DNA of 64,000 nucleotides from Armatimonadota bacterium (GTDB taxonomy: Bacteria; Armatimonadota; Fimbriimonadia; Fimbriimonadales; Fimbriimonadaceae), in contig JBAXBU010000007.1 of NCBI GenBank assembly GCA_037141835.1, positions 365 to 64,364 of the forward strand. The letters run 5' to 3'. Numbering within the stretch: position 1 is the stretch's first letter; each line of letters opens with the position of its first letter. The notes under the pieces were generated by a model. The model made no database searches. It saw only the letters and a program-made list of their open reading frames with translations, and had not been told where the DNA came from. This document shows positions 19,064 to 33,327 of the stretch, in pieces. Made by a program: the position numbers and the translations under genes.

Positions 19064-19699
19064 TTAGAAGCTGTTAGCTTCGTAGTCCCGCATCAGCCCA
19101 ACAACTTTGCCAATCACTTCGGTCTGAGTTGGATCAACATCTATTGGCGGATGATCTGGGTTGCTTGAGAGAAGCTGGACACCCTTACTGGTTTTATAGA
19201 TTCTCTTAATCGTGGCTTCTTCGCCAACGCGCACCGCCATTACATCATTGCCGTGAAACGTCTTTTGTGGTCGAATGACAACAAGGTCGCGAGGCATAAT
19301 TCCATCACCAATCATCGAGTCGCCTTTGATGCGTAAGACAAATGCACCTTGTATATTTTTAACCATTTCGATTGGAACTGGAATGGTGCCCTCAATGTCG
19401 GCTTCGGCAGGAACAGTCAAAGCTCCAGCGGCAATTGATCCTAACAAAGGAAGCATGGTCACCCGAGAGTTCCCCGGTGTAAATTTCGGATGAGTGAGCT
19501 TAATTGATCGCGGAGTATTCGATCGAGAAATGTAACCCTTACGTTCAAGTGCATCCAGGTGAACGGTAACGCCACGGAGCGATCCAATTTCAAAATTTTG
19601 TCCAATTTCTCGAATCGAGGGAGGATATCCTTCGGTTTCTACGTAGTGAAGAATGAAATCCAAAATCTCTTCTTGTCGCTTAGTCAATCCCTTTGCCAT
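19064..19699 (-). CDS. lexA: SOS repressor LexA
   Basis: LTKRQEEIL..GYPPSIREIG wHTH; IAAG cleavage site; GDSM (catalytic Ser) and TIKR (catalytic Lys). Confidence 0.97.
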   Translation of the reverse strand: MAKGLTKRQEEILDFILHYVETEGYPPSIREIGQNFEIGSLRGVTVHLDALERKGYISRSNTPRSIKLTHPKFTPGNSRVTMLPLLGSIAAGALTVPAEADIEGTIPVPIEMVKNIQGAFVLRIKGDSMIGDGIMPRDLVVIRPQKTFHGNDVMAVRVGEEATIKRIYKTSKGVQLLSSNPDHPPIDVDPTQTEVIGKVVGLMRDYEANSF

Positions 19700-19705
19700 A
19701 TTGCA

Positions 19706-19727
19706 CGTCTACCTGTAGCAGTAGACG
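19706..19727. promoter_or_regulatory. Candidate LexA operator CGTCTAC-N8-GTAGACG
   Basis: Perfect 7-bp inverted repeat between the -10 box and the lexA ATG; extra half-site GTCTAC at 19745-19750 next to the -35. Confidence 0.65.
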
Positions 19728-19728
19728 C

Positions 19729-19757
19729 ATTATACGCTTAGTTTGTCTACCTGTCAA
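19729..19757 (-). promoter_or_regulatory. Consensus sigma70 promoter of lexA
   Basis: Minus strand TTGACA (19757-19752), 17-nt spacer, TATAAT (19734-19729). Confidence 0.88.
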
Positions 19758-19816
19758 GAGGGATTCGGAAAAAATCCGTCATAATAACGGAGCAATAACT
19801 TTTAAGGTGAATCTGA

Positions 19817-21571
19817 TTGTCAATTAGTGTATTTCAAGAAAAAATCATAAAGGGCGGCTGCGGAAAGTTCGTCCTGATCTTCTGTGGCGCAGCCATGGTC
19901 TTTGGTATGGCGTTCTCGAATTGTAGCCGAGCCCAAAAGCTCTCGGCAACCGATATCAAGGGTGAGAAACTAAAGACATTCGCTACGGTTGGTGATGTCG
20001 AACTACCCAACTCGATGGTTGACTTAGCGATTGAGAATCAAAAGAAGAATTCTCAGCTTTCTCAGCTTCCGCCGGAAATGCTAGAAGGGTTGCCACCGGA
20101 TTACCAACTTCAACCAATTGCTGGCGGTATTTCCCAGACAGTTCAGCTAGCCGAAGTTTACGAAATTGCAAAGGGAATGGGCTATAAGTCAGACGATGAT
20201 TCTGTGAAGCAAGCCCTTCATTTCACGAGCGAAGCAGACTTTATGGCCAATATTCTGGATAGAGGCAAGAAGTCAGGCGAGCTAAAGGAAAATGCAACGC
20301 TAAAGGACCTCGAAGAGCTCGTGAAGCCACAGCTTCAAGGAAGAACCCTCAAGGACGTATTTACCGAGCAACAAACCGAACTCAATGCGGCTCTCAAAGA
20401 CCCTCAGAAGCAGCTTGGCGTAAGACTAAGTGGTGCTCAACAGTTTGTAATTGATAAACTTTCGGCTGGAGTGAATCCAACTGACGATGAAGTCAAAAAA
20501 GGTTTCGAGAATTACGAAATCAAGCGAATTCTTGCGAAGAGCACCGGAGCGGCAACCGACGCAGCAGCAAAAACTAAAATCGACAAAGCATATGCTGACC
20601 TCAAGGCCAATAAAGGTTTTGATGAAGTCATGGATATGTATACCGACGACCCAGGTCCTGATCCGAAAAAGAAGAAGAGCGAAAATGTCATTAAGCTTGG
20701 CTTGGACCAAGTTGAGAAAATTCCTGATTTCAAATCGATTTTGAAGCTGCAGCCAGGTGCTTATAGTGAAGTCGAAAAGGTTACTGAAGGCTATTCCATC
20801 GTGAAGTACGTTGGAAAGAAAGTTGACATTCCGAAAGACTACGAAGCGAAGAAGAATCAATACAAGCAACAAAAGGTTTCTCAGGATATTCAAAAGAAAT
20901 TTAAGGAAGAACTCGACAAGGTTGAGAAGAAAATTACACCTAAATTTGAATCCAAAGCTTACGAAGCAGCCTATCGATATCAAAAAGCCATGGCGACTCC
21001 AGCTGGTCCTGCTCAAGAGCAAGAATTCAAAGCTATCTTTGACCTAGCAAAGGGAGTTGAGTCGAATGACGATAAGCCAGAAATCGCAGCAATGGTTCGA
21101 CTAGCAACTATTCAACACTTGTACGACGCCCCTGGCGCTGACAAGAATAAATTGAAAGACGATCGAATCAGTGCTATCGAGAACTACTTGGGCTTTGCTA
21201 ACAGCTGGGCTTATCGAAAAGAAGTCATTGACTCATACAAAGAGAAGGGCGACAAGACGAAGGCGTTCGAACAATTGCTCATTGCACTTGAAAAGAATGT
21301 TCGGTTCGATAGCCAAGCTCAAACAACATTCTCAGACATATCGGCTAAGTTCCTTGAACTCCAAAAGGCTGGATTGGTCACAACCGAGCAAGAAGCTCAA
21401 TATAGGGCGAAGCAAAAGCTATGGCAAGAAGACAAGGCGAAGTACGACGCGGAAGAAGCGAAGTTAAAGAAGCAAAAGGAAGAAGAGGACAAGAAAGCAG
21501 CCGAGGAAGCCAAGAAGTCCAAGGGCAGCACTCTGACACCACCGCCTCCGACGAAAGCTCCAGGCAAGTAA
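19817..21571 (+). CDS. Membrane-anchored SurA/PpiD/PrsA-like chaperone (parvulin-like)
   Basis: N-terminal TM; SurA-N-like helices; KGFDEVMDMYTDDPG..YSEVEKVTEGYSIVK rotamase-like segment; Lys/Glu-rich tail. Confidence 0.6.
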   Translation: MSISVFQEKIIKGGCGKFVLIFCGAAMVFGMAFSNCSRAQKLSATDIKGEKLKTFATVGDVELPNSMVDLAIENQKKNSQLSQLPPEMLEGLPPDYQLQPIAGGISQTVQLAEVYEIAKGMGYKSDDDSVKQALHFTSEADFMANILDRGKKSGELKENATLKDLEELVKPQLQGRTLKDVFTEQQTELNAALKDPQKQLGVRLSGAQQFVIDKLSAGVNPTDDEVKKGFENYEIKRILAKSTGAATDAAAKTKIDKAYADLKANKGFDEVMDMYTDDPGPDPKKKKSENVIKLGLDQVEKIPDFKSILKLQPGAYSEVEKVTEGYSIVKYVGKKVDIPKDYEAKKNQYKQQKVSQDIQKKFKEELDKVEKKITPKFESKAYEAAYRYQKAMATPAGPAQEQEFKAIFDLAKGVESNDDKPEIAAMVRLATIQHLYDAPGADKNKLKDDRISAIENYLGFANSWAYRKEVIDSYKEKGDKTKAFEQLLIALEKNVRFDSQAQTTFSDISAKFLELQKAGLVTTEQEAQYRAKQKLWQEDKAKYDAEEAKLKKQKEEEDKKAAEEAKKSKGSTLTPPPPTKAPGK

Positions 21572-30014: not shown

Positions 30015-30033
30015 AAGGCAAGTCTACTTTTCG

Positions 30034-31083
30034 ATGTACACTAACGACTTCGCTATGCGACTTATTTTTACTTTTATAGGCTGTTTGTCGATCATCTCCC
30101 TCTCCAGGGCCCAAGTGCTTTTTGACGCTACAAAGGCGGAAATGGCGGGCAACGCTGACTGGGTCATCGATGCCGATCTCCACAACCTTGGTGTGAGCAC
30201 GGCCGCAATGGGGTCTGGTCAAGTTGGGGGAGGAACCGATTCGAACCCACAAAGAATCCCCAATCCTGGCTACGGAAATATCACAAATTCATCCCCAGAG
30301 ACCGCATGGACAGGCGCACTTTCAGCTTGGGGTGTCGGTCTCCTTAAGGCTGGATACAAGCCGGAAACTCTTGCATATAATAAGAAGATTACATATGGTG
30401 ATTCAAGCAATTCCCAAGACCTTTCCCACTATAAAATGTATGTTGTCTGTGAACCAAATATCTTGTTTACATTCGCAGAAAAGAAAGCAATCTTGAATTA
30501 CGTTCACGATGGGGGGAGCCTCTTTATGGTGGCAGACCACACCAGTTCGGACCGAAACAACGACGGAAAGGACTCGCTGCAAGTTTGGAATGATCTTCTC
30601 AACAATAATGGGATTGCCACCAACCCATTTGGGATTACGTTTAATTCCGACAGCGTTACGCCGGCGTCTCCGTTTGCGGATCCTTCGACATCCAACCTCC
30701 GAACCCACGGTAGCTACGGCACGGTATCCAATTTCTCGTACGCCTCGGGCTGCACAATGACGGTCAACACAACGGCAAATCGCTTCGCTACCGCCGACGT
30801 GTGGAGTTCGTCGGCAAAGAGCTCGTCAAGCGTCATGTTTGCTACTTCCACCTATGGCTTTGGTCGAATTGCGGCGGCAGGGGATAGCTCTCCTTTTGAC
30901 GACGGAACGGGGGATACCGGTGACACCCTGTTCAATGGCTGGGATGCAACCAACGACAAGCAGTTGATCATGAATACCAGCATGTGGTTGCTCAATCATC
31001 CCGCCGATGGTGTTCCTGAACCAGCTACTTTCGTTGTGATTTCCCTCGGATTGTGTGCGTTAATAGGGCGACGTCGCCGGTAA
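30034..31083 (+). CDS. Secreted PEP-CTERM protein
   Basis: Signal peptide; C-terminal VPEPATFVVISLGLCALIGRRRR. Confidence 0.88.
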   Translation: MYTNDFAMRLIFTFIGCLSIISLSRAQVLFDATKAEMAGNADWVIDADLHNLGVSTAAMGSGQVGGGTDSNPQRIPNPGYGNITNSSPETAWTGALSAWGVGLLKAGYKPETLAYNKKITYGDSSNSQDLSHYKMYVVCEPNILFTFAEKKAILNYVHDGGSLFMVADHTSSDRNNDGKDSLQVWNDLLNNNGIATNPFGITFNSDSVTPASPFADPSTSNLRTHGSYGTVSNFSYASGCTMTVNTTANRFATADVWSSSAKSSSSVMFATSTYGFGRIAAAGDSSPFDDGTGDTGDTLFNGWDATNDKQLIMNTSMWLLNHPADGVPEPATFVVISLGLCALIGRRRR

Positions 31084-32583: not shown

Positions 32584-33327
32584 ATGAAAAAAGCTTTAAC
32601 AATATTAGCGGTAGGTGCAGCGTCGGCTTCGTCTTTCGCGTCCGTCGTGTACGATGCTTTGTACACCGATTTAGGTCAAACAACTCTACGAACCATCACC
32701 AACACAGGTAGCACGCCACGAGGCAAGAAAGCCGACGTGGTAACTTTGGCTCCATTAACTGGAACCAATACGTTTTACCAATTGAACTCACTAAAGTTCA
32801 CCTTGGTTAACAGCGGTACAGCTCCGTTTTCAAACAACCTTGACGTAAACATGAAGTTCTGGGACACAAATACCCCAGGTACCGGTGCTACTACTCCACT
32901 CTTTAGCGGTGCTCAGGGCAACTACAACGTGACGTTTCAGTCATTCGCACTTACAAACGGCTTCTTTACTGTTGCGACTGTAACATTTACAAATGCCGTC
33001 ATCGTTCCAACTTCCTTAACTGCACCGACTTTTGGAGTAGAAATTACGACATCAGTTAATGGAATTACCAATGACGATGTGAGTGCAGGACTTTCTACAA
33101 TGGCCACTGGCTCACCTTTGACTGTTGGAAGTAGTACAAACGGCTGGTTCCGAGACGTCAACAATAATGGCGTTATTGATCAAGCTGAGGGAAGAATTTT
33201 CACTGGTGTAGATTCAAACCTAGCGATTGCGATTGACGCGACCGCTGTTCCTGAGCCTGCTTCCTTCGCAGTCATCGGACTTGGTCTCATTGGCCTCGTT
33301 GCTCGACGACGAAAGTCAAGCAAGTAA
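32584..33327 (+). CDS. Secreted PEP-CTERM protein (Thr/Asn-rich)
   Basis: SD GGAGG; MKKALTILAVGAASASSFA signal; VPEPASFAVIGLGLIGLVARRRK. Confidence 0.9.
   Translation: MKKALTILAVGAASASSFASVVYDALYTDLGQTTLRTITNTGSTPRGKKADVVTLAPLTGTNTFYQLNSLKFTLVNSGTAPFSNNLDVNMKFWDTNTPGTGATTPLFSGAQGNYNVTFQSFALTNGFFTVATVTFTNAVIVPTSLTAPTFGVEITTSVNGITNDDVSAGLSTMATGSPLTVGSSTNGWFRDVNNNGVIDQAEGRIFTGVDSNLAIAIDATAVPEPASFAVIGLGLIGLVARRRKSSK

Follow-up and report, generated by a model that had tools for sequence, protein, structure and literature searches.

We analyzed a window of 64,000 nucleotides, the whole stretch of DNA introduced above, which comes from contig C7 of a genome assembly of 3.51 Mb in 226 contigs. An open reading frame (ORF) on its minus strand, at 19064-19699, encodes LexA, based on Pfam matches to LexA_DNA_bind (PF01726, 77.9 bits) and Peptidase_S24 (PF00717, 101.3 bits), a score of 181.8 bits against the NCBIfam equivalog TIGR00498 (cut-off, 110.95), and alignment to LexA structures, of which Thermotoga LexA is the nearest solved one. 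The product combines a wHTH domain (recognition helix SLRGVTVHLDALERKGYI) and an S24 peptidase domain (Ser/Lys dyad) with a cleavage site at Ala91-Gly92. Alignment to the E. coli and Thermotoga LexA proteins places AAG at the cleavage site, GDSM at the serine motif, and the lysine of IKR at the catalytic lysine. This ORF is a bona fide LexA. The gene and its promoter contain the following features, in which A, B, and C denote copies of one hexamer.

19064-19699, minus strand: lexA coding sequence, 211 aa
19706-19727, minus strand: palindrome CGTCTAC-N8-GTAGACG of the preliminary description, made up of B and C
19707-19712, minus strand: half-site C, GTAGAC, in the 5' leader 7 nt ahead of the ATG; close relatives only
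19721-19726, minus strand: half-site B, GTCTAC, 2 nt past the -10 hexamer and inverted relative to A
19721-19750, minus strand: putative split operator A-N18-B, bracketing the promoter spacer and the -10 hexamer; conserved in the family
19729-19734, minus strand: -10 hexamer TATAAT, separated by a 17-nt spacer from the -35 hexamer
19745-19750, minus strand: half-site A, GTAGAC, 1 nt past the -35 hexamer and followed by a conserved AAA
19752-19757, minus strand: -35 hexamer TTGACA, kept in orthologous promoters

A promoter scan gave the lexA promoter 12 of 12 consensus matches with a 17-nt spacer, so the perfect consensus promoter of the preliminary description stands. Its other readings of the local sequence are equally exact: the 7-bp arms CGTCTAC/GTAGACG flank an 8-bp spacer downstream of the promoter, and the decamer ACAGGTAGAC occurs twice, with one copy overlapping the -35 hexamer. 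After TATAAT, the minus strand reads GC, GTCTAC, TGCTACAG, GTAGAC, GTGCAAT, and the ATG (19699-19697), and transcription is predicted to start at about 19722, within half-site B. Palindromes with 7-bp arms are not rare as such. Across the whole genome, which has 754 GTAGAC/GTCTAC hexamers, three exact copies inside 45 bp are found at the lexA promoter alone.

These hexamers are scarcer genome-wide than the approximately 1715 expected from length alone, and their density is 1.5 times greater in intergenic than in coding DNA. Immediately upstream of the lexA promoter (19775-19791, minus strand) is a terminator-like hairpin with a T-run. It is overlapped by a word, (A/T)TATG(A/G)CA, that is conserved 5' of lexA family-wide. 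On the plus strand, this word resembles an extended -10 element (TGnCATAMT) for a divergent gene of 584 aa (19817-21571), whose product has no Pfam match.

At other SOS genes of this genome, the hexamer occurs as a convergent inverted repeat, GTAGAC-N4-GTCTAC (N4 box). The recA promoter reads TTGACA-N18-TTATAA followed by GTAGAC-acag-GTCTAT-aatata-GTAGAC, which places the N4 box directly after the -10 hexamer. A search of both orientations at spacings of 0 to 20 with up to two mismatches was swamped by 3-nt coding periodicity, and we used one-mismatch lists and a weight matrix instead. With at most one mismatch, the genome has 10 matches to the N4 box, at least 6 of them intergenic, and intergenic DNA makes up 8% of the genome. 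The matrix, 22 nt long, was trained only on recA-orthologue sites from other genomes; it yields the consensus ATAGTAGAC-N4-GTCTACTAT, and GTATAC is a frequent alternative arm. In this genome, it found four matches that reach 19 bits, all intergenic, versus none in the reversed-sequence control, and seven that reach 17 bits (five intergenic) versus two in the control. The boxes lie ahead of the following genes, which were annotated by Pfam on crude long-ORF gene calls.

Upstream of recA: N4 box, 19.5 bits
Upstream of ruvB: N4 box, 18.3 bits
Upstream of ssb-tag (ssb, then a methyladenine glycosylase gene): N4 box, 20.5 bits
Upstream of the imuB-dnaE2 cassette (small ORF, imuB-like Y-family polymerase gene, dnaE2): two N4 boxes; 18.1 bits for the cassette
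dinB: N4 box with one mismatch
AlkB-like 2OG-Fe(II) oxygenase gene: N4 box with one mismatch
Ahead of a DinB_2-family gene: weaker site
C11:51644-51659 (L117:2145): weaker box with one mismatch, GTAGAC-ttga-ATCTAC, where a DUF881-DUF1290 gene pair begins
C93:4249-4270 (L116:2253): top box of the genome, 24.0 bits, GTAGAC-aaat-GTATAC, ahead of a 98-aa ORF (L116:2311-2607)
C73:12173-12470 (L115:2677 onward): promoter with a 23.7-bit box, plus about 300 nt of a paralogous stretch
C65:705-1005 (L119:708 onward): promoter with a 9.7-bit box, plus about 300 nt of the paralogous stretch

The 98-aa ORF behind the top box has no Pfam match and is a putative member of the regulon. The box at the DUF881-DUF1290 pair may bring cell-envelope or division genes into the SOS response. 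The stretches on C73 and C65 are candidates for an SOS-induced small protein or RNA, and an Rfam search of the box-driven noncoding stretches gave no match. They are 68% identical (E value of 1e-20), and their similarity begins precisely at the box. A possible small ORF in them has the common motif LGRFLKFAAY.SP. The C65 copy, located just 5' of the imuB-dnaE2 cassette, has its frame shifted by a (TTC)n microsatellite.

We also recorded a repeat of about 50 nt (containing ctaggttcaattcgttaccaa) at the 3' end of the box-driven element. It is present on at least six contigs (C151, C64, C128, C94, C108, and C96), and its copies are often paired, about 220 nt apart. A site with three mismatches at mraZ and another by a phage-type integrase gene are probably unrelated to the boxes. 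Within the window, two places that resemble the N8 palindrome of the lexA promoter were set aside: a near match at 32647 lies within a coding region and is no box, and GTCTAC-N8-GTACAC at 30022-30041, between divergent genes, is a single half-site without an N4 box. The GTAGAC half-site near 30022 (minus strand) is 8 nt ahead of the start of a 279-aa AP_endonuc_2 gene. The product, a xylose-isomerase-like TIM barrel, is possibly an endonuclease IV.

The N4 palindrome is kept in the same position at recA orthologues family-wide, and other genera of the family have the same boxes. All 27 imuB-like loci of relatives have an N4 box, scoring 11.7 to 23.3 bits, as do about 14 of 30 ruvB loci, where the box is absent in about half of the genus. 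For reference, the best score per random 220-bp window has a median of -0.7 bits and a 99th percentile of 8.1. We performed an unbiased dyad scan of 39 recA and imuB upstream regions of relatives, covering all tetramer inverted repeats at spacings of 0 to 14. The top six dyads (TAGA-N6-TCTA, GTAG-N8-CTAC, AGAC-N4-GTCT, TAGT-N12-ACTA, AGTA-N10-TACT, and ATAG-N14-CTAT) are nested registers of one palindrome. They occur in 5 to 10 of the 39 regions versus 0.13 to 0.39 expected. All counts over relatives overstate the statistical weight, because related genomes are not independent.

The hexamer also follows the recognition helix of LexA. We compared 74 lexA genes that encode the helix segment SLRGVT(V/I)HLDALERKGYI; besides Fimbriimonadales and Chthonomonadales, they represent two additional Armatimonadota lineages. 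Of the 74, 72 have an exact GTAGAC or GTCTAC within 200 nt upstream, versus none of five outgroup lexA genes. More distant Armatimonadota lexA loci (L231, L232, and L233, from genomes G062, G071, and G129) encode other helices. Two of these genomes have the helix SSCTVQRH, with ACAAAC-aagt-GTTTGT at lexA in one and GCAAAC-agat-GTTTAC at imuB in the other. The third has the Bacillus-like helix SSSSTVHAH and AGAAC-actt-GTTTG at lexA. When the recognition helix changes, the motif changes too but the N4 geometry does not, as would be expected if LexA reads the motif. These comparisons suggest that GTAGAC is very probably the LexA half-site of the lineage, and that Armatimonadota would hold at least three LexA specificity classes, with the N4 geometry kept in all.

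The lexA promoter itself has no full box, its best canonical N4 score being 2.9 bits; across family lexA promoters, the median best score is 2.8 bits, within background. We found no cryptic N4 partners for A, B, or C in this promoter, and the partner positions are unconserved among 28 distinct promoters; GTATAA-N3-GTCTAC has the wrong spacing. A pair of inverted half-sites, GTAGAC-N17-19-GTCTAC, is present in 35 of 73 lexA promoters (this window and 72 relatives), the Fimbriimonadaceae group. A and B are separated by N18 in 31 of them and by N17 or N19 in two each. The consensus of these promoters is cTTGACA-n-GTAGACAAA-N6-YGTATAnT-nY-GTCTAC, and the bases past B are unconstrained (about 0.1 to 0.3 bits). 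The pair has 58 instances in lexA loci, counted over overlapping sets, and none in approximately 400 kb of other SOS loci. Of all elements in Armatimonadota lexA promoters, half-site A is conserved the most widely. The lexA promoters of Chthonomonadales and other orders read TTGACA-GTAGAC-N4-GT..., with a compact box that fills the promoter spacer and scores up to 16 bits, and thus the split A-B arrangement of Fimbriimonadaceae looks derived.

Based on these sequence comparisons, we consider it likely that GTAGAC is the LexA half-site, that GTAGAC-N4-GTCTAC is the SOS operator, and that lexA is autorepressed through isolated half-sites. LexA proteins that read GTAGAC would have the helix SLRGVT(V/I)H and be distributed across Fimbriimonadales and probably Chthonomonadales, and their canonical operator would be the 16-bp convergent inverted repeat. 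The predicted operators fall on or just past the -10 hexamer of recA, ruvB, ssb-tag, dinB, imuB-dnaE2, and the alkB-like genes, a position at which bound LexA would block RNA polymerase. RecA-stimulated self-cleavage would remove LexA from these boxes.

At lexA, the repressor most likely occupies A and B, and in this species group C as well. With so low a full-box score at this promoter, autoregulation would rest on the half-sites, an arrangement that to our knowledge is undocumented for LexA. If canonical dimers sat on both A and B, their inner subunits would overlap by 2 bp, which suggests either alternate, half-engaged binding or one bridging dimer. Under the first option, a dimer would sit on each site in turn, making one specific contact each time. 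Under the second, a single dimer would span about 24 bp over the -10 hexamer by means of flexible linkers. The tolerance of 17 to 19 bp would fit a flexible rather than a rigid geometry, and either binding mode should weaken autorepression relative to full boxes and give a graded response. We put forward only tentatively, as possible but somewhat doubtful, that Fimbriimonadaceae LexA autoregulates through a split operator used at lexA only, whose inverted half-sites, 17 to 19 bp apart, would clamp the -10 hexamer, with the compact N4 box at every other SOS gene. If true, the proposal implies a way of binding so far undescribed for LexA, and the repressor gene would respond along another curve than its targets.

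The preliminary description had instead proposed that GTCTAC-N8-GTAGAC, the pairing of B with C, is itself the LexA operator and the SOS box of the organism, bound by one dimer in an E. coli-like 4-N8-4 geometry. It is a perfect palindrome with 7-bp arms at the lexA transcription start, it is built from a hexamer clearly linked to SOS genes, and an everted pair, GTCTAT-N6-GTAGAC, also occurs at recA of the closest relatives. However, the spacing of that everted pair is 6, not 8, and the exact N8 form has a single occurrence in the 3.51-Mb genome, at lexA, with no enrichment upstream of SOS genes. Allowing up to two mismatches gives 48 genome-wide matches, of which all but the exact one at lexA appear chance-like. 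Non-lexA SOS loci have no instance of the N8 form, and the everted form is missing from the enriched dyads of the 39 recA and imuB regions. Among orthologous lexA promoters, only those of about seven close relatives have it, and in these the distance between B and C is 7, 8, or 9 and the right arm C decays to GTAGAA or GTATAA. Its arm order is opposite to that of the palindrome common to all other SOS promoters, and a dimer of one geometry cannot read both arrangements. Because the N8 form is absent from recA and other SOS promoters and from distant lexA orthologues, we reject it as the SOS operator, a role we regard as highly unlikely. The N8 palindrome is a by-product of the back-to-back half-sites B and C and not an operator unit of the regulon. 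As part of the explanation we favor, C would probably be a recent addition in the species group, and its palindrome with B accidental.

Several parts of the earlier proposal nonetheless carry over. The resemblance to E. coli geometry holds for the enriched box, which is GTAG-N8-CTAC in tetramer register; the CTAC-N8-GTAG that had been noted has its arms in reverse order relative to this dyad. A new SOS motif was indeed visible in the lexA promoter, as the hexamer and not as the N8 arrangement. The hexamer forms part of a putative LexA motif distinct from the published LexA boxes, as had been claimed, and the suggested control of lexA through elements of its own promoter gains support in a putative form that involves half-sites only.

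Other explanations of the promoter would assign the hexamers to a different reader or to none. The palindrome might be an RNA hairpin in the lexA leader that controls translation or stability, and not a protein site, since its stem would reach -13 kcal/mol (z = -3.6) if it were wholly transcribed. The promoter geometry disfavors this: a leader that starts at about 19722, within the left arm, reaches -2.9 kcal/mol (z = 0.4). The arms also show no covariation in relatives, where the right arm merely decays, and the hexamer is also found at untranscribed positions beside the -35 hexamer, all of which leaves a hairpin extremely improbable. A non-LexA damage regulator might read the GTAGAC motifs, with their presence at lexA reflecting cross-regulation. 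LexA-independent DNA-damage regulators do exist in other phyla, among them PafBC, DdrO/IrrE, and DriD. Here, however, the regulon is the classic LexA core (lexA, recA, dinB, imuB-dnaE2, ruvB, and ssb), nearly all genomes searched have one full-length lexA match each, the motif switches exactly where the LexA recognition helix does, and the geometry is that of Gram-positive LexA boxes. We therefore judge a separate regulator highly unlikely. Half-site A alone could be functional at lexA, as a relic of an ancestral N4 box that filled the spacer, leaving B and C neutral or part of the promoter context. This would suit both the conservation of A, by far the widest of the three, and the compact boxes of the other orders. 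Yet 35 promoters from divergent species retain an exact GTCTAC at position B, with nearly constant spacing and unconstrained bases after it, and conservation amid such bases needs a reader, which makes a role for A alone highly improbable. We retain the reading in which LexA would engage both A and B.

A 2021 review counts 17 known LexA motifs and leaves Armatimonadota unmentioned (PMC8565304). Our full-text literature searches found no LexA motif for Armatimonadota, and a text search for GTAGAC returned noise. GTAGAC-N4-GTCTAC combines Cheo-type geometry with a new half-site, for which we found no prior description. For Fimbriimonadales, and probably for Chthonomonadales, it offers an SOS box that can be tested, together with a first putative regulon comprising recA, ruvB, ssb-tag, dinB, imuB-dnaE2, an alkB-like gene, and several uncharacterized small genes. 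LexA is the textbook case of a transcription factor with a motif that drifts from one phylum to the next, and three helix and motif pairs in one phylum, with N4 kept, would provide a compact natural series on the change of LexA specificity. The split half-sites, found at lexA only, raise the question of how flexible a LexA dimer is on DNA.

Among known LexA boxes, that of E. coli (CTGT-N8-ACAG) is likewise a 16-bp palindrome, and autorepression there acts through operators overlapping the lexA promoter, as it putatively does here. The sequences differ, and E. coli lexA has two full boxes, whereas isolated half-sites are present here. The alphaproteobacterial direct repeat GTTC-N7-GTTC and the long or nonpalindromic motifs are precedents for LexA dimers tolerating altered half-site orientation or spacing between lineages, but those motifs are uniform within a regulon, while here the spacing would be N4 at the targets and N17-19 at lexA. 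The cyanobacterial LexA box is reportedly RGTAC-N3-DGTWCB. Comparing consensus strings only, it shares the N4-type geometry, the AC...GT core, and TAGTA-like flanks (TAGTAC-N4 against TAGAC-N4), and it differs in its arm, which is GTAC where ours is AGAC.

The Gram-positive (Cheo/DinR-type) box, GAAC-N4-GTTC, also is a convergent repeat with a 4-bp A/T-rich spacer, has an identical inner AC-N4-GT core, and lies on or beside the -10 hexamer of recA, dinB, ruvB, and similar genes. B. subtilis LexA is cleaved at Ala91-Gly92, as in the Fimbriimonadaceae LexA here, and the Armatimonadota lineage with the Bacillus-like helix keeps AGAAC-N4-GTTTG. The half-site here differs, being (T)AGAC or GTAGAC against (C)GAAC, with a consensus of AGAC/GTCT in place of GAAC/GTTC. 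The helix is SLRGVTVH as opposed to SSSSTVHGH, and lexA here is without a full box. Based on the N4 geometry and the inner AC-N4-GT core, we regard the box as a Gram-positive-type variant.
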